Assembly: GCA_965242525.1 (NCBI GenBank)
Contig: OZ251459.1
Coordinates: 3,392,001-3,456,000 of the forward strand
DNA: 64,000 bases
Source: an uncultured Candidatus Binatia bacterium
GTDB taxonomy: Bacteria; Desulfobacterota; Binatia; UBA9968; JAJDTQ01
Reading direction: 5' to 3'
This document shows, one piece after another, positions 22,644 through 34,227 of this stretch (position 1 is the stretch's first letter; each line of letters opens with the position of its first letter). A program made the position numbers and the translations under genes. The notes beneath the pieces are model-generated. The model was not told the DNA's origin, did no database searches, and saw only the letters and a program-made list of their open reading frames with translations.

Positions 22644-23324
<681 letters not shown>

Positions 23325-23447
23325 CGGCAACGAGGGGCGGCCGTTCCCCGGCGAAGTTCCTCGGCGAACTCGATGCTTGCCGGGGCAGTGGCCCGGACCG
23401 ACAGATTACGCGCTTCGACGATGGTGAGGGAAGGACAAGGCATCCAC

Positions 23448-24179
23448 ATGGAAATGAGAGGGACAGCCCGCCTGTGTGTTCCGGCCGTAGTGCTTTTGCT
23501 CATGGCGATGGGCGTGTTTTCGGCGCCGGCGCAAACCTTTGAGGAGGCCGTGGCGGCATATGAGCGCGGCGACTACGCCGCGGCCTATGGCGGGTTCCAG
23601 GTGCACGCGGAGCAGGGCGATGCAAGCGCTCAGTACAATCTCGGTTACATGTACCTCAATGGGGAGGGTGTGCCCCAAGACTATGCAGGGGCGGCGAAGT
23701 GGTTTCGCCGGGCCGCAGATCAGGCCTTTGCCCCTGCTCAGCTCCATCTTGGGACCATGTACCATAAGGGGCAGGGAGTACCCCAGGACTATGCCGAGGC
23801 AGCAAAGTGGTTTCACCAAGCTGCGGATCAGGGCTTTGGCCCCGCTCAGTTCCTTCTCGGATTCATGTACGACAATGGGCAGGGAGTGCCCCAGGACTAT
23901 ACGGAGGCGGCAAAGTGGTATCGCCAGGCTGCGGATCGGGGCGATGCTTCCGCTCAACTCAACCTCGGGCTCATGTACCACAAGGGGCAGGGCGTTCCGC
24001 AAGACTTCGTTCAGGCATACCTGTGGTTGAACCTTTCCGCATCCCGAAGATCGGATAAGAGGGTGCAGGAGTTGCGCGATGAAGTAGCAGCCCGTCTGAC
24101 CCCGGCAGACCTCGCCCTGGCCCAGCGGTTGTCGCGGGAGTGGCAGCCCAAAGCAGAAGGGACTTATCCAGCAAACTAG
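23448..24179 (+). CDS. Secreted Sel1-like repeat protein
   Basis: Signal peptide plus four 'AQxxLGxMYxxGQGVPQDYxEAAKW(F/Y)xxAADxG' repeats. Start codon uncertain (23373-23454). Confidence 0.9.
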   Translation: MEMRGTARLCVPAVVLLLMAMGVFSAPAQTFEEAVAAYERGDYAAAYGGFQVHAEQGDASAQYNLGYMYLNGEGVPQDYAGAAKWFRRAADQAFAPAQLHLGTMYHKGQGVPQDYAEAAKWFHQAADQGFGPAQFLLGFMYDNGQGVPQDYTEAAKWYRQAADRGDASAQLNLGLMYHKGQGVPQDFVQAYLWLNLSASRRSDKRVQELRDEVAARLTPADLALAQRLSREWQPKAEGTYPAN

Positions 24180-24281: not shown

Positions 24282-24704
24282 ATGGGCAACAAGTTTATCA
24301 GGGGCTGCTTGCTTGTCGTGATGGTGGCGAGTTTGGGCGGGTGTGCGTCGTCGCCAAAAAGTATTAGTGCGAGTTACGTTTCGCCTCTCCAATACCAATC
24401 ATATGACTGTGACCAGATTGCCCAAGAGATGCACCGGATCACCCGCAAGGTTCAGGAAGTGACCGGAGTTCAATCGAGTAAGGCATCGGGGGATGCCGTA
24501 GCTGTGACGGCATCTCTACTGTTCTGGCCGGCCCTCTTCTTTCTGGCGGCGGGAGAAGACAAGAGCGCTGAATTGGCGCGTCTCAAAGGCGAGGCTGAAG
24601 CGTTGGAACAGGCTGCTGTACAGAAGAAGTGCACGGCGTTGCTTGATCAGATCGAGCGTGAACGAAAGGCTGCGGAAAAGAAAGCTGCCGAAACCACGGA
24701 GTAG
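24282..24704 (+). CDS. Putative lipoprotein
   Basis: AGGAG RBS; lipobox 'LGGC'; 'YVSPLQYQSYDCDQI', one hydrophobic segment and a C-terminal coiled coil. Confidence 0.8.
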   Translation: MGNKFIRGCLLVVMVASLGGCASSPKSISASYVSPLQYQSYDCDQIAQEMHRITRKVQEVTGVQSSKASGDAVAVTASLLFWPALFFLAAGEDKSAELARLKGEAEALEQAAVQKKCTALLDQIERERKAAEKKAAETTE

Positions 24705-24857
24705 CCCATTGAGTAGTAGGCTTTTTCCACTTTTGAGTGAGTCAAAGTGAGCGGGCAGTGGAGCCGGTGGTTAGGCCTGACGGGAACGGGCTAACGGCGC
24801 CGATATGTGGCCAAGCAGCAAGATTGTTGTGGGAAACAATACTCGTGAGGTAGGGGT

Positions 24858-26018
24858 ATGGAGATGAACATCGCCAGAAAACAGGGGGCCCAGTTAGCGC
24901 TATGGGCAGATGACCCTGGCGCCGAGGTCCCGGAGTATCTGTCGCGCCAGTTGATCACCTACATCGGCAACAAGCGCGCCCTGCTCGGACACATCGCCGC
25001 AGCGGTCGAACAGGTCAAGCAGCGTCTTGGAAAGACACGTCTCCGGATATTCGACGCCTTCAGCGGCTCCGGGGTGGTCTCCCGATATTTCAAGGCGCAT
25101 GCCGCCCTGCTGATCAGCAACGACATCGAAGAATACGCCGCCGCAACCGCACGCTGTTACCTGAGCAACAGGAGCGGAGTTGACCTTGAGGCGGTAACCG
25201 AGGCCGCCGCCGACCTGAACCAAAGGGTGGATACCGAGAAGTTTCCAACGGGCTTCATCGAAGAATTGTACTCGCCCAAAGACGAAAAGCGCATCACCAG
25301 GGAGGACCGCGTCTTCTACACGAAGAGCAACGCACAGCGGCTGGACAACTACCGCCGCCTCATAGACACACTACCGGCTGAAATGCAGGATATGCTCCTT
25401 GGGCCTCTGCTCAGCAGCGCGTCCGTTCACGCCAACACAGCAGGGGTCTTCAAGGGCTTCTACAAGAACCGAGAGACCCGGATCGGCCAATTCGGTGGCA
25501 GCGGAGCTGATGCCCTGGTTCGTATCACAGGAAAAATCAGGCTCGAAGCGCCCGTGCTCAGCAACTTCGAGTGTGACTATCAAGTGCTGCAAGAGGACGC
25601 CAACGCCGTTGCGCCTCGCCTGAAGGATCTCGACCTTGCATACATAGACCCGCCCTATAATCAACATCCCTACGGATCGAACTATTTCATGCTCAACCTG
25701 CTCCTGCGATACCAATGTCCCCGGCGCGTCAGCCAGGTTTCCGGAATACCGACCGACTGGCAGCGCTCCGGGTACAACGTGAAAGCCAGATCCCTTCCTC
25801 TCCTGAAAGATCTTCTCGGAAAGCTCGATGCGCGGTTTCTTCTCATATCGTTCAACAACGAAGGCTTTATTCCCACTCACCAGATGAGCGCGATGTTGTC
25901 CGAGTTGGGTTCCCTGGACGTCATAGAGACGCCGTACAACGCTTTCCGTGGCAGCCGGAACCTCAACAACCGTCCCGTCCATGTCACCGAACAGCTATTT
26001 CTGGTGGAACGGAGGTAA
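24858..26018 (+). CDS. N6-adenine DNA methyltransferase (D12/alpha class), with no intact REase adjacent
   Basis: 'YIGNKR', motif I 'DAFSGSG', 'ISNDIE', motif IV 'YIDPPY', 'SFNNEG'. Confidence 0.92.
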   Translation: MEMNIARKQGAQLALWADDPGAEVPEYLSRQLITYIGNKRALLGHIAAAVEQVKQRLGKTRLRIFDAFSGSGVVSRYFKAHAALLISNDIEEYAAATARCYLSNRSGVDLEAVTEAAADLNQRVDTEKFPTGFIEELYSPKDEKRITREDRVFYTKSNAQRLDNYRRLIDTLPAEMQDMLLGPLLSSASVHANTAGVFKGFYKNRETRIGQFGGSGADALVRITGKIRLEAPVLSNFECDYQVLQEDANAVAPRLKDLDLAYIDPPYNQHPYGSNYFMLNLLLRYQCPRRVSQVSGIPTDWQRSGYNVKARSLPLLKDLLGKLDARFLLISFNNEGFIPTHQMSAMLSELGSLDVIETPYNAFRGSRNLNNRPVHVTEQLFLVERR

Positions 26019-26237
26019 CGTCGGTTGGCACGAAAGCATCCATTAGGCGAGCAGCGCGTTACGCTGACCGAACGGTTCCCCACACTGGACGTCAGCGTGA
26101 CCTGGGCGCGCACGCTGCCAAGGCAGATGGCGCGTGAGACCGCCCGCATCGGCCAAGGCGATGCGCCGATCCTGCGGGAACTCGGTCGATCCTTCCGCAA
26201 CCGGGAACCACGCCGGGATGTACAGGTGACCAGCAGC

Positions 26238-26407
26238 TTGGGCAGCGTCGGGGTGAGTTGCCCGGCCGTCCAGGAGCCTGCACCGCGCGAAGACGAGCAA
26301 CGTAGCTGACGGCAACGAGGGTCGTCTGTTCCCCGGCGAACTTGATGCTTGCCGGGGCAGGGTCCGTACTGATAGATTACGCGCTTCGACGATGGTGAGG
26401 GAAGGAC
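26238..26407 (+). repeat. msrA 3' end plus downstream region, copy 2
   Basis: Encodes 'LGSVGVSCPAVQEPAPREDEQRS*' versus the msrA end '[23 protein letters not shown]'. Confidence 0.9.
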
Positions 26408-26519
26408 GGCGCTTCAGGAATTCGTGTGGGTGTCCTTACCAAAGTAAGGAGATGGCGAGACAGGCACGAACCCATCGAGATTTGCCTGTTTGACGTGGAT
26501 TCTCGCCACAAGGGACGAC

Positions 26520-28142
26520 ATGATGGACAAAACGATAGCCACATCTCTTGCCGATGCGCTTCAGTCCGTTCTTGCACCTAGGCCGGGAGAAGTGCGCGAA
26601 CGCGAGATTTTGCGAGTCGCAGCGACCCTCGGTGGAGACAATAGCGAACAAAATGCCGAGAAGGCACGGAAAGAAGTCCTCAAGTGGGCGCAGAAGCGAG
26701 TGGGCGACCGCTTGCCGGAAACCGCCTGGAAGTACGATGAGTTCGAGAAGCACATGGGCGGGCGCGATTGCAAGGCCGTCCGTATCGCCAGTGAAGCCAC
26801 AGACTTGTGGGCAATTCGAGCTAATGATCCCGACAAGAACATTGCACAGAGGGTTTGGACAACGGAGGTCGTCATTGGCTTCGCAAGAGCGCAAAAAACA
26901 CCTATCGGCTTCGGACTTCGTTTGCTCGTAAGCTCACCCGAAGCAGATTTGCAGAGCGTGGAGCGAGCCGTCCCCGGATTGGTGTGGCAGTTGGCGAACG
27001 AATGCGGGCTTTATCAGGGAGCCAGACAGTTGTCCCCTGAACCGTGGATCGTCGAATCGCGTGAAGACATGCTTCGCCTGATTGGTGTCCTCCTTGATCC
27101 TTTGCGTAGAGAGCCTGTTTTTGTTCTGAGTATCCCAAGAGACGCGACTGACCTGCATGCGCCTCTCATAGACCCCGGGCCTTTAGCACGTGCGATGCTC
27201 GGGCTTGCCAAGGTCGTAGTACTACCCGCCCGATCCACTTGGGCTTTGACGGATCAACTGGGCAAGCGACTATCTGTGTTTAATGGCGCGGTTCGAGCGT
27301 ATTTGCCCGGATTTACCGAAGACGCTGAACCATACGACCACGACCTTTTCCTTCAAGAGCACCTGTTGAATCCAGCGAAGGTCCACCAAGTGTCCGTCGC
27401 TCTGCGGCAGATGGCGGCTGCAGAAAGCCTGCGGAGGCTTCGTTTGGGCCAGGACGTATTGTCCTTCTCCAGGGTGCAGGCGCATAGCGTCGCAATTTCG
27501 AGCGCTCGCCTTGAGCATACCGAAAACAAGCTGATTACGGAAATCGAAAACCTTAGAGAATCTCTGAAGAAGTCGGAAGACGAACAGGAGTGGTTCGCTG
27601 AACAACATGACCGTGCAGAGAAGATGGCAAAAGATTTACAGCACAAATTGAGTCATGCCAATCTTCGTATTCAACAGCTCACAGAGCAACTGGCGACTCA
27701 TGACGACAAGCCTGATTCCAATCTTTCGCTCCCGGACACATGGGAAGATTTCTCGGAATGGTGTGATACTCACTTGGACGGCCGGGTGCAGTTGTCGTCG
27801 CGCGCTCGTCGGGAAGTCAAAGCACCGTTGTTCGAAGATATCGGAATGGCAGCCCGATGTCTGCTCTGGCTTGCCAACGATTATCGCCAAGGGCGCCTGG
27901 AGAGCAACACCTCCGATCCTCGGGGTTCGATTGAAGGCGGATTGAAGAACGAGCGTTGCGGCGCCGATCAATTCAAGTTCAACTGGCAGGGAAAACAGAT
28001 CGACGTCGTGTGGCACATCAAGAACGGTGGCAACACACGAGATCCGGCACGTTGCCTTCGCATTTATTATTTTTGGGACGACGGGAACCAGCGAGTCGTG
28101 ATAGCCTCCATGCCGGCTCACATCCCCACTGACGCGACGTGA
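26520..28142 (+). CDS. Hypothetical multidomain protein: N-terminal domain, coiled coil, C-terminal RelE/ParE-like domain (putative defence protein)
   Basis: AT-richer than the flanks; heptad region 'LITEIENLRESLKK...LQHKLSHANLRIQQL'; C-terminus 'WHIKNGG...CLRIYYFWDD..QRVVIASMPAH'. The domain call is tentative. Confidence 0.65.
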   Translation: MMDKTIATSLADALQSVLAPRPGEVREREILRVAATLGGDNSEQNAEKARKEVLKWAQKRVGDRLPETAWKYDEFEKHMGGRDCKAVRIASEATDLWAIRANDPDKNIAQRVWTTEVVIGFARAQKTPIGFGLRLLVSSPEADLQSVERAVPGLVWQLANECGLYQGARQLSPEPWIVESREDMLRLIGVLLDPLRREPVFVLSIPRDATDLHAPLIDPGPLARAMLGLAKVVVLPARSTWALTDQLGKRLSVFNGAVRAYLPGFTEDAEPYDHDLFLQEHLLNPAKVHQVSVALRQMAAAESLRRLRLGQDVLSFSRVQAHSVAISSARLEHTENKLITEIENLRESLKKSEDEQEWFAEQHDRAEKMAKDLQHKLSHANLRIQQLTEQLATHDDKPDSNLSLPDTWEDFSEWCDTHLDGRVQLSSRARREVKAPLFEDIGMAARCLLWLANDYRQGRLESNTSDPRGSIEGGLKNERCGADQFKFNWQGKQIDVVWHIKNGGNTRDPARCLRIYYFWDDGNQRVVIASMPAHIPTDAT

Positions 28143-28369
28143 AAGCCGTCCCATAACCGACAGTCACCACGCTGGTGCTTACTACGTAATGATTGTGCAA
28201 AGGAAGGCTCTTCAGTTCCACGGAAATGATGCCGGCGGTACCCATTCGCACCTTCGGGGCCATGAGTTCATTCCGTGGAGGTCTTGGACCGTGAAAGAAC
28301 ATCGAACCAAGGTAACGTATGCCAAACTCTCCGTAGAGAGGATCCGTACCCTGGAATGGGAGGCATTAT

Positions 28370-29356
28370 CTACTCGATCTTCTCGTTGGTTTCTGTCTCT
28401 GCCTGGCTTGGATCCTTACGTTTGGAAGCAACAGATTTTTCGAGTTTTTCTTCCAGGTCGGCCATTCTCTCCTGTAAGGTTTCAACCTCTCTTTTTAGTC
28501 CAATAACACGCTCGGCCGTCGTTGCCTGTTTTGCTGTCATGTCACCTGTGATATTGCTGACATTCAGCACGATAGTAGCGATACCCACTGCTACAGTCAC
28601 GGATATAGTAACTGCACCACCAATGGTGTAGTTCCGCGAACGCTTAGCGCTCCTTGCTGCTTGTTCAGCGCTTTCCCTTGATTCACGTAGTGCCCTGGGA
28701 ATGGAGCTTCGGATTTCAGGTTGCTTAAGATAAGTATCAAGTGTTTTTCTATTTTTGTCCTTCGGAAAAGGTGTGTATATGCCCTGGTAGGATTCTGTTG
28801 AACGATTGATGTTTACCCAATGGTCGTTAGGAGAAATTTTCGTAAACTCTAGCCATATCAATTTTTCTTCGTAGCAGAATTTGTATTTGTTGGTAGTGAG
28901 ATTATGCAACGGAATCAGAATGCGACCTTTGAACCCCGGGTCAACAATGGGTCCCGTACCGAGAAGCAATCCCCGATGGACATTTGTAATTGTGAGATTG
29001 AACCTTACCGCCATATAGTCCGGAAGGCGAAACTTTTCTCTGGTCGTGACGAAGGCAATCGAATTCGGTTCCAAAACAAAAGAACCTTTTTTACTCAGGT
29101 CAACGGACTGCTTCTTCCCGTCATCCTCCCAATAGATACAATCTGCCCCCACGCTTGCCTCGTATGAGGCCGGTTTGAGCTTCTCCGAATCGAAAGGATA
29201 GATCATCCCCGTAGTACGGACATAGTCGTAGATGTCGGCGGAATTGAGCAACGCCGCCGGAATATTCGGGAACGGATCACGCGACTTGTACTCGTTGAAC
29301 CGAGCCCCCGCGTCATCGTCATCGCGTAGGGGATACCGTTCTTGCTGAGTCGTCAT
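28370..29356 (-). CDS. dCTP deaminase/dUTPase-fold protein with degenerate deaminase site, C-terminal TM helix and coiled coil
   Basis: 'LLNSADI', 'LKPASYE', 'FVLEPNSIAFVTTREKFRLPDY', 'IVDPGFKGRILIPLHN'; hydrophobic 'IGGAVTISVTVAVGIATIVL'. Confidence 0.8.
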   Translation of the reverse strand: MTTQQERYPLRDDDDAGARFNEYKSRDPFPNIPAALLNSADIYDYVRTTGMIYPFDSEKLKPASYEASVGADCIYWEDDGKKQSVDLSKKGSFVLEPNSIAFVTTREKFRLPDYMAVRFNLTITNVHRGLLLGTGPIVDPGFKGRILIPLHNLTTNKYKFCYEEKLIWLEFTKISPNDHWVNINRSTESYQGIYTPFPKDKNRKTLDTYLKQPEIRSSIPRALRESRESAEQAARSAKRSRNYTIGGAVTISVTVAVGIATIVLNVSNITGDMTAKQATTAERVIGLKREVETLQERMADLEEKLEKSVASKRKDPSQAETETNEKIE

Positions 29357-29360
29357 GAGG

Positions 29361-30410
29361 CTACCGCGTGGCTACCGCGTGCGCGATGTGCTCTTGTCTT
29401 GGATACAAGGACTTGGACCCCGGTCCGACCCCCACCCAATCCACGGATACGCCGATGGACTGCTCGACCGCTTTGACGAACTCCTCCGCCTTGTCCGTGA
29501 CTCGTTCCTCTTCCCGGCAGCGCCAATCCACGTAATCGAGATGGTTGAGGACCACCCGGCTAGGCGAGTTCGCCTGGATCGCCTGCAGCACGACCTCGGC
29601 GTCGAACCTTGCGACTCGACGGATTCGTCGGGTCACACTGGTCTTCTCCACTATGCGCCCATCGGCACCCGACTCCCGGGCCACGGTGTTCCAGTCCATT
29701 TCCCGCGGAAGCGGGCCGGAGTTTCCCGACACCCGTATGGGGAAGGCCCGGAGCACCAGGATCACATCGTCCACGTCGAGAGGACTCAGGCCGACCTCCG
29801 AAAGGAACCCTGCGGCCGTGGTGTCACGTGACGTCACGTGTGGATAATGATCCGAATGAAGCAGGGACAAACCAAAGCCCTGGGTCCCTTCGACGATCAC
29901 CCGGCGGTTCTGCTGCAAGCAACGCCGCGCCATTTCCCTGACAGGCTGGAGGTAGGGTTGCAACCGTGGGTCGTCCGCGGCCCTCTTCGACCGGCCTTGG
30001 CGCTCTATGCGCCGTATGACCGCGCCGCCGGTACCGGTCAGGGTGGAGCCGATGAGAGATCCCAACCCTGCCTTCCGCTCCCTTTCCCTGTCTTCCTCGG
30101 TAATCACGAAGGCGTTCGGGTCCACGCTCACTCGGTCACATGCGAGGGAGGGGTTGCTCAGTTCCTCCAGGAAGACCTCCACGTCGATGTAGGAGCCGGC
30201 CCCTATGGCGCAGTGGATTCCGGGGATGAGGCAGGCGGTGGGCAGGCAGCGGAAGACGTGGCGTCGCCCGTCTTCGACCACCGTGTGGCCGGAGTTGGGG
30301 CCTCCGGTTCGGATGGCAACGGCCGCTTTTAGCTGTCCGGCCAGGAAGTGGGCGACCTTGCCCTTCCCCTCCGAGCCGTACTGACCGCCGACCACGATGG
30401 AAACCGGCAT
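29361..30410 (-). CDS. Adenylosuccinate-synthetase homologue with PurZ/PurZ0-type signature (candidate 2-amino-dAMP-succinate synthetase)
   Basis: 'GGQYGSEGKGK' (Ser for the PurA Asp), 'GGPNSGHT', 'IGSTLTG', 'EGTQGFGL', 'TSRD', 'FPIRVSGNSG', 'EKTSVTRRIRRV', 'NHLD', 'GVGP'; short archaeal/phage-type length of 349 aa. Confidence 0.85.
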   Translation of the reverse strand: MPVSIVVGGQYGSEGKGKVAHFLAGQLKAAVAIRTGGPNSGHTVVEDGRRHVFRCLPTACLIPGIHCAIGAGSYIDVEVFLEELSNPSLACDRVSVDPNAFVITEEDRERERKAGLGSLIGSTLTGTGGAVIRRIERQGRSKRAADDPRLQPYLQPVREMARRCLQQNRRVIVEGTQGFGLSLLHSDHYPHVTSRDTTAAGFLSEVGLSPLDVDDVILVLRAFPIRVSGNSGPLPREMDWNTVARESGADGRIVEKTSVTRRIRRVARFDAEVVLQAIQANSPSRVVLNHLDYVDWRCREEERVTDKAEEFVKAVEQSIGVSVDWVGVGPGSKSLYPRQEHIAHAVATR

Positions 30411-30420
30411 GGCAGGACCT

Positions 30421-32511
30421 TTACACGAAGTTCAGTCGATGCTCAAGGCGTTCCAGCACTTCGGCACAGAGGTCGTCCTTGGTGCGGTCGTTTGCCGCCC
30501 GGACGTGCGCGAGTTCGCCGAGCATGGCGACGCCCCGTTCCGAGAGGTGTCGGAGGGACTGCTCCCGACCGGAGCCCTTTGCGGACGCCTTCGCGGGCGA
30601 AGGCCCGTCCTGCCTTCCATCCTCACGGGTCAGGTGCACGTGGACGAAGGCCGGACCGTAGGTCTCGACCAGGAAGGCATGGTCTTCGGGGAAGCGGAGT
30701 CCGTCGATGACGACGCTGCCCTCCGAGGGCAAACGCTCCTTCAACCGGCGGCAGAGCCAGCGCTGTCCGGGGGCCTCGTGGATCTGCGCCCCCAGGTCCT
30801 GGAGCGCCTTTTGGCTTACGGGACGCCCGTCCTTCCGCAGTTCGTCTTCGAGCACTTGGCTGAACCTTCCGTAGGCGTAGCCCCGGCTTTCCAGGAAACG
30901 GGCAACGGTGGTCTTGCCGGCGCCAGTCTCGCCGCTCAAACCCGCCACGCGCCGGTCCAGCCAGTCCCCGGGCTGGCGGGCAAGGTCCGGCACGATGAGG
31001 TATTCTTCCTCGTCGTTGCCCAGGGCCTCGAACTTTCCCGTCCAGAAGAACAGGCCCACCAGGGCGGACGTGATGGCGTCTAGTTCGTCGTGGGACAGCT
31101 TGTCCGAAGCGATGGGTCCGCGGACCCCGAAATCGAGCAGGGCCCGGGTCAGGTGCTCCAGGCCCTTCTTCTTCCGGGGGATCCCCAGGATGTCCTGGGC
31201 GGCGCCGGGGTAGCTTTCGATGACCGGGATGCCGAGCTTCCGAAAGTGCGTCGCCAGACGGATGCCCCGGGCGGTGAGGCCCTGCATGTTCAGGATCAGC
31301 GTGGGATAGACGTGGACGCCCCGCGCCCGGAGCAGTCGCTCGCATTCCCGGGTGATGCCGAACTCCTCCCTGGCCGGGTCGTCGTCGGTGGTGCGGGTGC
31401 GCCCGTACGGCAGGGACAGGGGGGAGTCGATGGACACCATGTGCGGCCGGGCGCAGACGGTCTCGCTGATGAGGTCCAGGTCGCTGCCGATGCGCTGCGT
31501 CAGGGCGTAGTCGTCCGTGAGCAGGCACCACCCGGAGGCCCGGGCCTCCGACCCGGTCAGGTCGATGCCCACCACGCGCAGCGGCCGTTCGCGCACGGCC
31601 CCGGTCAACTGCCCGTAGGTGGTGCGGGGACCCTTCGCGCCCCGGTAGGGCGGCACGTAGATCCGATGCCCGGCCTCGGCCTTTCGGCTGGCGGCCCATG
31701 CCAGCCTCCGGGGTTTGGCCAGGAACCGGGGCGGCGGCGTGCGGAGGACTTCGGCCACCCCGTCCGCGGCCTTGCGCCGGATGGCCTCGTCCAGGATCGC
31801 CTGCATGCCCACGATGTCCGCATGGTTGTATTCGATGAGGGTCTTGCAGGCCGCGTCGTCTCCCATCTGGTACTGGTACCAGAGCACCGGGGCCATGGCC
31901 CCGTCCACGTCGGCCACATGGCTTCGCCCCTCCACGCGGATGGACCGCTCGATGGCCTTCTGGTTGCCCACCAACCCCACGGACCGGCCGAAGAACCGCA
32001 GGTCCACGTGGGCCTCGGGGAGCTTCACGTCGGGGAACTCCCGCTCCATGAACTTGGTGTCGAACACCGAGCCGTTGAAGGTCACCAGGCAGGCGGCCCG
32101 GGACAGCAGGCGGGCCAGCGCCGCCTTGCTGCCGCCCCGGACGTGGCAGTAGTACTCGTCGGCCAGGCCGACGCCCACGATGGTGACGTAATCGTAGTAG
32201 ATGCTCAGGCCGGTGGTCTCCACGTCCAGGAACGCGGTGGACCGGGGCAGGGTCAGGGCGATGCGGTAATGCTCCCGCCGGGGCAGCCGACGGGCGAAGA
32301 AGTCCATGTCCCCCCGGGCCAGGGCGGCGCGGGATTCGGCCAGTTCGGACAGCAGGGCCGGGACCGACCCGGCCTCCCGGGGCCAGGGAAAGCCTGCCTG
32401 GGGGAAAGAGGCGCGTTCGAGGTCGTCCCAGGTGCGTATCCCCTGTTCCCAGAGCGCCCGCTCCTTCCTGGCCCCGATCCCCGGTAGGTGGATGAACGTG
32501 GATTCCAGCAC
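30421..32511 (-). CDS. Fusion protein: HhH + DEDD/RNase_H_2 (YprB-like) exonuclease + DUF429 RNase H-like nuclease + P-loop NMP-kinase-like domain
   Basis: 'HLPGIGARKE'; 'FLDVETTGL...TFNGSVFD...HVDL...YNHAD'; 'VGIDL...SIDSPL...RECE...IESYPGA...HDELDA'; 'GLSGETGAGKTT...VVIDGLRFPED'. Confidence 0.85.
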   Translation of the reverse strand: MLESTFIHLPGIGARKERALWEQGIRTWDDLERASFPQAGFPWPREAGSVPALLSELAESRAALARGDMDFFARRLPRREHYRIALTLPRSTAFLDVETTGLSIYYDYVTIVGVGLADEYYCHVRGGSKAALARLLSRAACLVTFNGSVFDTKFMEREFPDVKLPEAHVDLRFFGRSVGLVGNQKAIERSIRVEGRSHVADVDGAMAPVLWYQYQMGDDAACKTLIEYNHADIVGMQAILDEAIRRKAADGVAEVLRTPPPRFLAKPRRLAWAASRKAEAGHRIYVPPYRGAKGPRTTYGQLTGAVRERPLRVVGIDLTGSEARASGWCLLTDDYALTQRIGSDLDLISETVCARPHMVSIDSPLSLPYGRTRTTDDDPAREEFGITRECERLLRARGVHVYPTLILNMQGLTARGIRLATHFRKLGIPVIESYPGAAQDILGIPRKKKGLEHLTRALLDFGVRGPIASDKLSHDELDAITSALVGLFFWTGKFEALGNDEEEYLIVPDLARQPGDWLDRRVAGLSGETGAGKTTVARFLESRGYAYGRFSQVLEDELRKDGRPVSQKALQDLGAQIHEAPGQRWLCRRLKERLPSEGSVVIDGLRFPEDHAFLVETYGPAFVHVHLTREDGRQDGPSPAKASAKGSGREQSLRHLSERGVAMLGELAHVRAANDRTKDDLCAEVLERLEHRLNFV

Positions 32512-32528
32512 ACCCGGCTATTCCTCGG

Positions 32529-33053
32529 CTATTCCTTCAGGAGGCGTTGTATCTCGCTCTCCATCTCCGCGTAGCCCCCCTCGCCGAAACGGGTGTAACG
32601 GACCACGCCGCCCTTATCGACGATGTGCAGCGTGGGCCAGTAGCGGGTGCCGTAGCGTTTCCAGGTGGCGAAGTCGTTGTCCAGCGCCACCGGAAACTCC
32701 ACGCCCAGCCGCTTGCAAGCCTTCCGGACCTTGTCCGGGTCGTGTTCCCAGGCGAACTCCGGCGAGTGGATGCCCACCACCAGGAAGCCCTGGGGTCCAT
32801 ATTTCTCGTGCCAGCCCGCCAACTGCGGGATCGTGTTGGTGCAGTTGATTCAGCCGTAGGTCCAGAACTCGATGAGGACCACCTTCCCCCGCAGGTCCTT
32901 CAGGCGCAACGGCTCCGAGTTGATCCACGTCTCGTTGGTGAACTCCGGCGCCTCCTTGCCCAGCAGGGAGGCCCCGGCCCCGCCGGCAGCCGCCAGCGCC
33001 AGGAACCCCGCAAGGGCCGCAAGCGCGAGTATCCGCATCCCGGATTGCTTCAT
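32529..33053 (-). CDS. Exported thioredoxin/redoxin (DipZ-C-like), predicted selenoprotein with UxxC
   Basis: Track ORFs 32850..33053 and 32529..32822 are in one frame: 'LIEFWTYG-TGA-INCTNTIPQL...GIHSPEF...DNDF..W...YWP'. The TGA sits at the first Cys of CxxC. Confidence 0.88.
32815..32829 (-). promoter_or_regulatory. Candidate bacterial SECIS apical hairpin
   Basis: mRNA CCCGC-AGUUG-GCGGG begins 20 nt 3' of the UGA, with GU at the 5' side of the loop. Confidence 0.6.
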
Positions 33054-33318
33054 GTGTCCGTACCTCCGACGCCATTATGCCGATCTTGCGGCACGGAAAC
33101 AATCCCCATGCGCGGCCCGACCCGGCGCGGGCGGGGGCCATGCGGGTCCTCGGGCAGACCGGGGGCCGCGGAGGCCGGAAGGCGCTGGAAACCCCGTATG
33201 CCTTGCTGCATAATGATCGACCGCGCGGCGAGAAAGGAGAGGGCCGTTTCCCCCTGACGGGTCGCCGGTCCACCCGCGGTCGGCCCCGCGTGCGGCGGTC
33301 CCTGGAAGGAAAGTACGA

Positions 33319-34227
33319 ATGCTCTACGACTATGTGGCCCTGCCGGACCGCCCGCGGCTGCGGTGGCCCGGGGGCGCGCGGGTGGCGCTCGTCTTCACCA
33401 TCAACGTCGAGTACTGGGAGATGACCCGGGAGGGCGCGGAGCCGCTCTATCCCGGAGGTCCGGCGACCATCCCCCACGTGCTTCCGGGCAACGTCCCCGA
33501 CTACGCCAACTGGACTTGGCGGGAGTACGGCCAGCGCGTGGGGGTCTGGCGCATCATCGACGCGTTCGACAAGGCGGGCGTACCGGCCACCTGCACCATG
33601 AACGCGCTGACCGGCATCGAGCGCCGCCGCATCATCGACGCCGCCAACGAACGCGGCTGGGAGATCCTCGCCCACAACTACGCCCAGAACGACGTGCTGA
33701 CCGGCTACGCCAACCGCCCGGACGAGGAGCGCGAGGTGATCCGCCGGACCCTGGACGTCTATGCCGACGTGGTGGGCCGACCGGCCCGGGGCTGGCTGTC
33801 GTCGTCCCTCCGCAGCACCCACGAGACCCCGCACATCCTCAAGGAGCTCGGGCTGCTGTTCCAGTCGGACTACCTGAACGACGACCAGCCCTACCTGCTC
33901 CACACCCGCCACGGCCCCCTGGTGTGCATCCCCTATTCCAACGACGTGAACGACTTCGCCGTCTTCTCCCGGGGCGGACGGACCACGTCCCAGGCGCTGG
34001 AGCTCTTCGAGGAGCAGTTCGACCAACTCTACCTCGAAGGCGAAGAGACCGGACGCATCATGAACGTGGGCCTCCACCCCCACGTCATGGGCCAGGCATA
34101 CGCCGTCCGGGCCCTGCGCGAGTTCCTCGACTACGCCAAGAGCTTCGAGGGAGTGTGGTATCCCAAGCGCGAGGAGATGGCGGAATGGTACCTGGAGCAG
34201 CAGGGATCGGCACCGGGGCGCGGCTGA
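33319..34227 (+). CDS. Polysaccharide deacetylase family protein (PuuE-like)
   Basis: 'WPGGARVAL', 'EYGQRVGVWR', 'WEILAHNY', 'RGWLSS', 'DDQPY', 'IPYS...ND', 'GLHPHVMG'. Confidence 0.9.
   Translation: MLYDYVALPDRPRLRWPGGARVALVFTINVEYWEMTREGAEPLYPGGPATIPHVLPGNVPDYANWTWREYGQRVGVWRIIDAFDKAGVPATCTMNALTGIERRRIIDAANERGWEILAHNYAQNDVLTGYANRPDEEREVIRRTLDVYADVVGRPARGWLSSSLRSTHETPHILKELGLLFQSDYLNDDQPYLLHTRHGPLVCIPYSNDVNDFAVFSRGGRTTSQALELFEEQFDQLYLEGEETGRIMNVGLHPHVMGQAYAVRALREFLDYAKSFEGVWYPKREEMAEWYLEQQGSAPGRG

Follow-up and report, generated by a model that had tools for sequence, protein, structure and literature searches.

A Dcd/dUTPase-fold protein with lost deaminase residues and a predicted membrane helix, linked to a PurZ-like synthetase in a possible nucleotide-based defence system

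The window analysed here, a 64,000-nucleotide stretch of contig OZ251459.1 from an uncultured Candidatus Binatia bacterium, contains a gene on its minus strand, which we call DCD-TM, whose product has the fold of dCTP deaminase (Dcd) and dUTPases, has lost the residues needed for deamination, and continues into a helical stalk, a predicted transmembrane helix and a coiled coil. The gene lies beside those of a PurZ-like paralogue of adenylosuccinate synthetase and of an exonuclease-kinase fusion protein, in a set that is widespread in bacteria and apparently undescribed. By analogy with the Kongming system, we tentatively explain DCD-TM as a trimeric receptor-effector that would respond to a modified deoxynucleotide made by its partners, in a three-to-four-gene nucleotide-based defence system. 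We regard this as the best of the explanations considered below, at a confidence that stops somewhat short of calling it probable. The locus is chromosomal, in a genome of 4.2 Mb, and the parts of the protein are as follows.

28370..29356, minus strand: DCD-TM gene, an open reading frame (ORF) of 328 aa with an ATG start, encoding a Dcd/dUTPase-fold head, a helical stalk, a hydrophobic helix and a C-terminal coiled coil
28844..29248, minus strand: Dcd-like domain, residues 37-171, delimited by Pfam, Foldseek and the alignment with E. coli Dcd and 257 relatives
28559..28627, minus strand: hydrophobic, predicted transmembrane helix, residues ~244-266, from hydropathy and the asymmetry of Lys and Arg
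28427..28531, minus strand: C-terminal coiled coil with heptad spacing, residues ~276-310, predicted to be extracytoplasmic, from its a/d spacing, the AlphaFold2 (AF2) helix 276-310 and inter-chain contacts

The Pfam family PF22769 (DCD) matches residues 37-171 with an E-value of 8e-11, and in the NCBIfam equivalog for dCTP deaminase (TIGR02274, EC 3.5.4.13) the protein scores 51.2 bits, which does not reach the cut-off of 92.8. The AF2 model, calculated from an input alignment of 27 sequences, is confident in the head, where the predicted local distance difference test (pLDDT) is about 85-93 for residues 11-120 and 141-170, and poorer in the tail. Foldseek relates this model with a probability of 1.00 to Dcd and Dcd-dUTPase structures (4a6a, 2qlp, 1xs1), and the E138A/E138D variant structures of Dcd are among the matches. 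By sequence, the nearest solved proteins are the archaeal Dcd-type dUTPases 9ln0 (E 9.5e-13) and 8y1w (E 2.1e-11). The fold, the N-terminal motif and the 'DPG' motif are common to DCD-TM, to Dcd (E. coli 1xs1; M. tuberculosis 2qxx/4a6a) and to these archaeal enzymes (T. pacificus 8y1w, P45 9ln0). Relatives of similar length number 2052 at E ≤ 1e-3, and those at E ≤ 1e-30 form 751 clusters at 50% identity; in the ESM Atlas, DCD-TM falls only in 'hypothetical protein' clusters.

Ser111, Arg115 and Glu138 are catalytic in E. coli Dcd. In order to compare these positions, DCD-TM was aligned with E. coli K-12 Dcd and with the Dcd of its own genome, and the numbering was anchored on the invariant columns G117, G133 and N141. 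The motifs 'TITNVHRG' and 'DPGFKGRILIP', from which an earlier note on this DNA had derived a Dcd fold without catalytic residues, are present in the translation. R110/S111/S112 of E. coli Dcd become T122/I123/T124, R115 becomes H127 (with R128 next to it) and E138 becomes P149, so that the protein has Ile123, His127 and Pro149 at the three catalytic positions. Among 257 relatives, the position of E138 is Pro in all, that of S111 is Ile in 252, and that of R115 is His in 152 and Tyr in 105. As the replacements run through the whole family, they characterise it and do not reflect decay. In its degree of conservation, the domain is close to the partner enzymes described below (mean distance 0.506 versus 0.478 and 0.537). 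In sum, DCD-TM combines the Dcd/dUTPase fold with the loss of the deaminase residues.

Other positions of the protein are strongly constrained. D128 and W131 of the E. coli 'IDPGW' motif align with D139 and F142, so that both the Asp, which the earlier note had listed as kept, and the aromatic residue of 'DPGF' are preserved, and Asp139 is found in 253 of the 257 relatives. The Gln in the 'ICQLIV' motif of the genome's own Dcd aligns at Trp168 (conserved in 238), and Glu170 is conserved in 256. Arg118, His151 and Lys173 are invariant, and the C-terminal arm motif of Dcd is also kept (F197 in 232 relatives, K201 in 229).

Compared with Dcd, DCD-TM has about 150 extra residues, which make up the stalk, the membrane helix and the coiled coil. 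The Kyte-Doolittle maximum over 19 residues is 2.16 and starts at residue 248. A segment with a hydropathy of at least 1.6 occurs beyond residue 180 in 250 of the 257 relatives, with a median of 70 residues after it; the hydrophobic helix of about 20 residues that had been noted earlier is thus a conserved segment of the transmembrane type. In 120 relatives, the 15 residues preceding it contain on average 3.3 Lys or Arg, against 1.1 after it, which according to the positive-inside rule places the Dcd-like head in the cytoplasm. The coiled coil that was said to follow the helix is also there: L282, V286, L289, M293, L296 and L300 are spaced 4-3-4-3-4 in the sequence, and AF2 builds residues 276-310 as a helix.

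Dcd and dUTPases bind nucleotide at the subunit interface. A homotrimer prediction for DCD-TM reached a score of 0.83, and the best of three controls reached 0.00; among proteins of solved structure, 20 of 30 one-chain pairs and 1 of 23 single chains attain the mark for this score, which was calibrated on two copies and not three. The contact agreement of the runs was at least 95% and the partner pLDDT at least 77. As Dcd trimers have already been solved, the success of the head in this prediction may reflect memory, and it is the individual contacts that are informative. The family-invariant stretches 61-64, 119-123, 139-141, 147-156, 168-173 and 189-197 sit in the modelled interface, and the predicted trimer would thereby resemble the Dcd homotrimer with its active sites between subunits. 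Modelled inter-chain contacts recur every 3-4 residues over 219-308, the hydrophobic segment included, so that in the model three helices form an unbroken stalk, which passes through the hydrophobic segment and leads into the C-terminal coiled coil.

The partners of DCD-TM in the window are encoded upstream of it.

29361..30410, minus strand: PurZ-like short adenylosuccinate-synthetase paralogue, 349 aa (PF00709, E 1.7e-50; P-loop GGQYGSEGKGK; RVSGNSG loop)
30421..32511, minus strand: 696-aa fusion protein with HhH, exonuclease, DUF429 and kinase-like domains (Pfam)
31786-32235, minus strand: DEDD-type exonuclease domain (RNase_H_2), residues 93-242 of the 696-aa protein (Pfam)
31006-31569, minus strand: DUF429, residues 315-502 of the 696-aa protein (Pfam)
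30445-30948, minus strand: P-loop kinase-like domain for deoxynucleoside monophosphates (dNMPs), residues 522-689 of the 696-aa protein (Pfam; phrog_139)

The PurZ-like protein stays under both NCBIfam cut-offs, with 286 of 368 bits for archaeal-type PurA and 233.9 of 300 bits for PurZ. Its matches in the PDB are the short PurA of Pyrococcus horikoshii (2d7u, 4.7e-56), PurZ0 (7vf6, 4.1e-45) and PurZ (6fm1, 2.5e-37); the placing of its clade relative to archaeal PurA and phage PurZ is based on these E-values and bit scores. Of 70 family rows compared at the Asp13 position, 63 carry Ser and 4 carry Gly, none has Asp, and 3 are gaps or miscalled ORFs; the protein of the window has Ser. According to passages of PMC12884076, 99% of PurA homologues have Asp13 and every one of 147 phage PurZ/PurZ0 sequences has Ser there, and an excerpt of bioRxiv 10.1101/2025.10.22.683976 defines PurZ by a Ser at this position. 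The partner, called PurZ-like in the earlier note, does carry the PurZ signature. The alignments further show a 'RVAGNSG' loop that is common to the PurZ-like family and PurZ0 and is two residues longer than that of the archaeal enzyme; at the place of this loop, a passage of PMC8342488 describes an insertion in PurZ that pushes a Val towards the sugar C2'. Housekeeping PurA, Dcd and Dut are encoded elsewhere in the genome, and DCD-TM is hence not a housekeeping gene.

In the 696-aa protein, the kinase domain is closest to a phage dNMP kinase (phrog_139, E 2.6e-7). The acidic exonuclease residues D96, E98, D151 and D232 are conserved in 38-39 of 39 operons, the Walker-A Gly-Lys of the kinase domain in 37 and the Thr that follows in 36. 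The arrangement varies: the nuclease and the kinase are split in locus L004, an HHH_8-PHP module (PHP exonuclease-type) replaces the DEDD domain in L032, and in 6 loci the PurZ-like enzyme has a dNMP-kinase-like domain fused to it. A further partner is a deoxynucleoside kinase (dNK, PF01712). Judged by their families, all partners of DCD-TM would act on deoxynucleotides, which we count in favour of the receptor-effector explanation.

The linkage of these genes was followed in two scans. One, with one genome per species, gave 193 confirmed DCD-TM stretches, the best 80 of which were analysed with partners located by tblastn; the other started from the PurZ-like gene and confirmed 570 or more stretches in metagenomes, again with the best 80 analysed. 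Homologues of DCD-TM are very strongly linked to a PurZ-like gene, as the earlier note had supposed: it is present in 77 of the 80 loci and is the next gene upstream, on the same strand, in 59. Two of the three loci without it are cut by contig ends. The exonuclease-kinase occurs in 57 of the 80 loci (with at least 450 aligned residues in 50) and dNK in 34, directly downstream in 32. The minimal form, found on a Sinorhizobium plasmid, consists of DCD-TM and the PurZ-like gene. From the other side, 57 of 67 PurZ-like metagenome loci with at least 700 nt of downstream room carry a DCD gene. In 39 operons, the distances of the synthetase and the exonuclease-kinase are correlated with a Mantel r of 0.845, and those of DCD with the synthetase and the exonuclease-kinase with r of 0.67 and 0.62 (p 0.001 in each case). 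The three core genes thus largely co-evolve.

The earlier note had proposed that the DCD-TM position is an exchangeable effector slot, and that homologous operons should be inspected for a swapped gene. In three of the ten PurZ-like loci without DCD, AAA+ proteins of 696-836 aa lie in the slot or next to it.

L092, 5898-8408: AAA+ slot protein, PF00004 at the C-terminus
L141, 1705-3795: AAA+ slot protein, PF00004 at the C-terminus
L159, 8046-10265: AAA+ slot protein, PF00004 at the C-terminus

Comparison of the DCD family with an AAA+ slot protein by hhalign gave no relation (probability 0.1). These AAA+ proteins bear a weak likeness to the anti-phage ATPase IteA, and their large N-terminal part belongs to no known family. 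Together with the looser Mantel correlation of DCD, they uphold the idea of a slot. The argument from base composition, on which the idea had been founded, fares less well, as the gap in G+C is partly intrinsic to the family. The DCD-TM gene is indeed more AT-rich than the two genes upstream of it, with a G+C content of 0.475 (0.511 at third codon positions, GC3) versus 0.642 (GC3 0.783) for the PurZ-like gene and 0.689 (GC3 0.892) for the gene of the 696-aa protein. However, over 74 loci the DCD gene averages 0.063 lower G+C than its neighbour, and the gap exceeds 0.10 in only 10. The gap in the lineage of the window is among the largest of the 74, and only this excess hints at exchange.

In the mechanism that we envisage, the exonuclease would work at free DNA ends, of invading DNA or of the degraded chromosome, and set dNMPs free. 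The PurZ-like enzyme would join dGMP with aspartate to give N6-succino-2-amino-dAMP, which the PurB of the host might turn into dZMP, and the kinase domain together with host kinases would phosphorylate the product further, to the di- and triphosphate. In the cytoplasm, the trimeric Dcd-like head would then bind this deoxynucleotide in inter-subunit pockets, which would retain the deoxyribose-recognising Asp and aromatic residue with a rebuilt site for the base and the phosphates. The resulting change would travel along the continuous trimeric stalk across the membrane, disturb membrane integrity or signalling and abort the infection. The narrower proposition that debris of DNA degradation is converted into an alarm nucleotide, with the DEDD exonuclease/dNMP kinase feeding dGMP to a cellular PurZ-type enzyme, the dead Dcd trimer reading the product and the stalk killing or arresting the cell, is doubtful in this complete form.

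The main rival holds that the Dcd-like head is not dead. DCD-TM would then be an active, membrane-tethered pyrophosphatase for deoxynucleoside triphosphates (dNTPs), an analogue of phage DutZ/MazZ that supplies the PurZ-like enzyme with dGMP made from dGTP and may also clear dATP; the product of the operon, dZTP or a succino-nucleotide, would poison phage DNA as it replicates. Passages of PMC12884076 state that DutZ, a Dut-fold hydrolase of dATP and dGTP, goes with PurZ0 in each of the 98 genomes, and according to an excerpt of PMC8342488 the phage Z-cluster is toxic when expressed and brings Z into the DNA of E. coli. In relatives, the stop codon of the PurZ-like gene overlaps the start of DCD-TM, which suggests that the two proteins are produced together.

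The active site can be read both ways. The motifs of dUTPases include Arg-Ser in motif II, Asp and Tyr in motif III and Gln in motif IV, and we take Asp128 of Dcd, the counterpart of the widely retained Asp139, to correspond to the catalytic Asp of dUTPases. DCD-TM does not have the full set of five dUTPase motifs: Asp139 and Phe142 are kept, the Arg/Ser positions are Thr(Lys)/Ile, and Trp stands at the position of the motif-IV Gln. Of the 257 relatives, 252 have Ile in place of the phosphate-binding Ser, all have His or Tyr in place of the Arg, and 238 have Trp where the Gln would be; the Pfam search found no match of DCD-TM to PF00692 (trimeric dUTPase) at E ≤ 0.01. Moreover, one would not expect an obligatory pathway enzyme to be swapped for an unrelated AAA+ protein, or to have a membrane helix and a coiled coil on the outside. 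We therefore consider an active pyrophosphatase unlikely, while it remains the reading against which the receptor-effector explanation has chiefly to be measured.

Several observations weigh against the receptor-effector explanation. The archaeal dUTPases 8y1w and 9ln0, which are the nearest solved relatives, are also without the Glu (Met in the alignment), yet they are deposited as dUTPases, so that loss of the Glu alone does not exclude hydrolysis. The invariant polar residues R118, N120, D139, H151, E170 and K173 would fit a rebuilt catalytic site equally well; it is these two points that keep the pyrophosphatase in play. One helix per subunit is little for a pore, and the conserved outer coiled coil suggests a role that the explanation leaves out. 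The substrate of the PurZ-like enzyme is deduced from one residue and one loop. The operons L100 and L108 show no gene in the slot at all. As far as the defence setting is concerned, the PADLOC models match neither DCD-TM nor the PurZ-like protein, and 39 of 56 loci are without a PADLOC match in the two neighbours tested.

The outer coiled coil and the membrane position would suit the sensing of envelope events, and this leads to a second alternative, in which DCD-TM is a sensor or regulator rather than a killer. It would read the dNTP pool or a membrane event, such as the entry of phage DNA, and hold or release the PurZ-like and kinase enzymes, whose products, or the drain on dGMP, GTP or aspartate, would stop the phage. 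Dut-fold proteins can signal, as the title of PDB entry 8p8o, a Dut-Stl complex, illustrates. Phage dUTPases de-repress SaPI islands via Stl. It is also in keeping with a regulator that DCD-TM and the PurZ-like gene form a constant pair, down to the two-gene form beside toxin-antitoxin and Abi genes on the Sinorhizobium plasmid. On the other hand, that AAA+ proteins can take its slot is rather what one would see with an effector, and this analysis gave no support for a contact between DCD-TM and the PurZ-like enzyme. A purely regulatory role thus seems to us an improbable one, about on a par with the pyrophosphatase.

The distribution of the set bears on the receptor-effector explanation and on a third alternative, an ordinary accessory module of deoxynucleotide salvage or repair without a role in conflict, in which DCD-TM would be a divergent enzyme of the housekeeping type. 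The 80 loci span Binatia, Cyanobacteria, NC10, Nitrospirota, several proteobacterial classes, Actinomycetota, Bacillota, Bacteroidota, Planctomycetota, Acidobacteriota and others. Among close relatives the set is patchy, with strong DCD-TM matches in 2 of 27 genomes of the same genus, where three more are weak, and in none of the 33 genomes from the order's other families. A scan of viral contigs found 0 relatives of DCD-TM, and a phage collection of 50,697 records gave only distant Dcd/Dut matches, in 12 records. The set is accessory and cellular. Three Sinorhizobium plasmids carry the DCD-TM/PurZ-like pair near toxin-antitoxin and Abi genes.

The three weak matches within the genus (G004, G010, G012; profile E-values 1e-21 to 1e-24) cover the head only. 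They lie in frames of 330-397 aa and may represent a second, more distant family of extended Dcd-like proteins.

The neighbours were compared with PADLOC models for 111 of 145 selected ORFs in 56 of 73 loci, taking the two nearest large neighbours and matches at E ≤ 1e-10. In 17 of the 56 loci at least one of them matched, to restriction-modification types I, II and IIG, BrxC, JetD, DruA, a SAVED nuclease or a TIR protein, and further to an Argonaute-associated protein, capP/RmrA and several PDC candidates. Known defence genes are thus frequent neighbours of the set. DUF7002 genes occur in 6 of the 80 loci (L051, L053, L059, L062, L064, L078), beside a gene for an ImmA/IrrE-type peptidase in L053, L062 and L078; in L053, Pfam also found a Macro fusion. 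According to PMC12522546, a family resembling ADP-ribosyltransferases (ART) adjoins adenylosuccinate synthetase in 60% of its neighbourhoods, and DUF7002 may be this DarT-like ART family. A salvage module would agree with the origin of all parts from nucleotide-metabolism families and with the 39 loci without a recognised defence gene. It agrees less with a genome that already has PurA, Dcd and Dut, with a set that is patchy among close relatives yet spread across many phyla, with the 17 loci whose nearest large neighbours belong to restriction-modification, BREX, CBASS-type, TIR, Druantia or Wadjet systems, with variants that add ImmA/Macro and ART-like DUF7002 genes, and with the loss of the DCD-TM catalytic residues. 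We judge it very improbable.

Two further arrangements were seen in these loci. In a variant operon of L053, L062 and L078, an ImmA/IrrE-type peptidase, a kinase-PurZ-like fusion, DUF7002 and DCD-TM stand together, with dNK in addition in L053; L051, L059 and L064 also count among the loci of this variant. Furthermore, a 250-aa protein without a Pfam or NCBIfam family is present in 28 of the 80 loci (L009, L011, L013, L020, L023, L046, L077 and others), where it accompanies the PurZ-like/DCD-TM pair, often where the exonuclease-kinase is absent. It has the invariant motifs YxGDxxDxxK and FxDPDNG and an AF2 model with a pLDDT of 91, whose best structural match is the N6-adenine rRNA methyltransferase RlmJ (7p9o, E 1.5e-4, TM-score about 0.45). 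Enzymes like RlmJ carry DPPF/Y where this protein has DPDNG. True RlmJ-family genes (PF04378) also recur in its loci, and in the ESM Atlas the family likewise falls only in 'hypothetical protein' clusters.

Among known systems, the receptor-effector explanation draws chiefly on Kongming, in which, according to passages of bioRxiv 10.1101/2024.12.20.629578, KomB is a HAM1 ITPase that has lost its catalytic Asp and senses dITP. There, too, a dead house-cleaning fold is found beside a base-modifying enzyme, a deoxynucleotide kinase activity and a defence island, as far as those passages go. The parts differ: Kongming uses HAM1 and an adenosine deaminase, and the present set a Dcd fold and a PurZ-like synthetase; its effector is a SIR2 partner, and here a membrane stalk in the same chain is proposed; its kinase is borrowed from the phage, and here it is encoded by the system. 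The families of KomA (adenosine deaminase), KomB (HAM1) and KomC (SIR2) were not found, as Pfam gives only DCD, Adenylsucc_synt, RNase_H_2, DUF429 and the P-loop kinase.

The likeness to the phage Z-clusters (PurZ or PurZ0 with DatZ, MazZ or DutZ) consists in the Ser at the Asp13 position and the 'RVAGNSG' loop shared with PurZ0 (7vf6), as well as in the company of a Dut-fold protein, which passages of PMC12884076 report for PurZ0. The present system, in contrast, is cellular, its PurZ-like protein is below the PurZ cut-off and closer to archaeal-type PurA, DCD-TM is not an orthologue of DutZ, and the operon has no DpoZ or DatZ gene.

The PUA-Cal-HAD system comes close in its chemistry. In the portions of PMC12871103 concerned, m6-dAMP from chromosome breakdown is the trigger, and related PUA-like sensors are linked to an adenylosuccinate-synthetase operon, read there as making an N6-succinylated adenine nucleotide. 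Both the reading of such a product by a receptor-effector and the use of dNMPs from DNA breakdown as danger signals would thus have a parallel. The receptors of that system are PUA-like and its effectors soluble phosphoesterases; section 5 and the passages concerned of the paper do not mention a Dcd-fold or membrane partner. With the anti-phage dCTP deaminase (a kinase plus a zinc cytidine-deaminase fold; NF041025, PADLOC 'dCTPase'), only the name and the theme of the dNTP pool are common: the kinase domains of the partner proteins weakly resemble its kinase domain, and its catalytic fold is unrelated to DCD-TM. The membrane effectors of CBASS and Pycsar join a ligand-binding domain to transmembrane helices, in a slot that is open to other effectors; the DCD-TM family has one conserved hydrophobic helix per chain, and AAA+ proteins in the same slot in three loci. 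A full-text literature search found no description of a Dcd-fold membrane protein linked to an adenylosuccinate-synthetase paralogue; the figures and supplements of PMC12871103 and PMC12522546 lay outside this search and may show such operons.

The junction between DCD-TM and the PurZ-like gene contains one more feature that had been remarked on.

29360..29381, no strand: 11-bp tandem duplication, GCTACCGCGTG x2, exact, inside the 3' end of the PurZ-like gene

The repeat is real and had 0 matches in 100 shuffles. The stop codon TAG of the PurZ-like gene occupies 29361-29363, 4 nt upstream of the DCD-TM ATG. The two closest relatives, L001 and L002, have a single copy of the unit and an ATGA overlap of stop and start, so that the tandem is a recent duplication private to the lineage of the window; it alters only the last few residues of the PurZ-like enzyme and abolishes the overlap. 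Its position inside the gene and the single copy in L001 and L002 rule out a recombination or module junction. A scan of 28000-33000 for promoters and terminators found nothing on the operon strand that bounds the operon: the 3 promoter-like sites were all on the plus strand, and 2 terminator-like sites compare with 3.8 expected. Contigs from four sequencing runs matched 24500-33500 only in short fragments.

Convergent to DCD-TM lie two genes with PADLOC matches.

24858-26018, plus strand: type II N6-adenine methyltransferase (D12-class), PADLOC MTase_II, E 5e-109
26490-28142, plus strand: HEC-07 candidate defence protein, PADLOC E 1.4e-174

In L001, an 88%-identical relative, a HEC-07 match was not found, and the methyltransferase match covers residues 128-386 only. 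A direct repeat of about 190 nt (23248-23436 and 26233-26407) falls into three adjoining pieces of 84-91% identity, and its two copies stand about 2.98 kb apart. The repeat reproduces the 3' end of an msrA-like gene with the sequence downstream of it. It flanks a block made up of a Sel1-repeat protein, a small lipoprotein-like ORF and the D12-class methyltransferase, and looks like an insertion scar or a reused integration site next to the HEC-07 gene. The three tandem copies at 23607-24033, with a period of 108 nt and 74-76% identity, belong to the Sel1-repeat gene and are ordinary protein repeats.

If the receptor-effector explanation is true, this would be the second case after Kongming of a base-modified deoxynucleotide that serves as an immune messenger and is read by a disabled house-cleaning enzyme, and the first in which the receptor is a trimer of the Dcd/dUTPase fold wired directly into the membrane. 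The three-gene unit is defined and can be cloned. The large cellular clade of enzymes with the PurZ signature also bears on the origin of phage Z-genome biosynthesis: should the conversion of DNA debris into an alarm nucleotide hold, the PurZ chemistry of phage Z-DNA would have a large cellular, defence-associated sister family, and one side may have taken it from the other.

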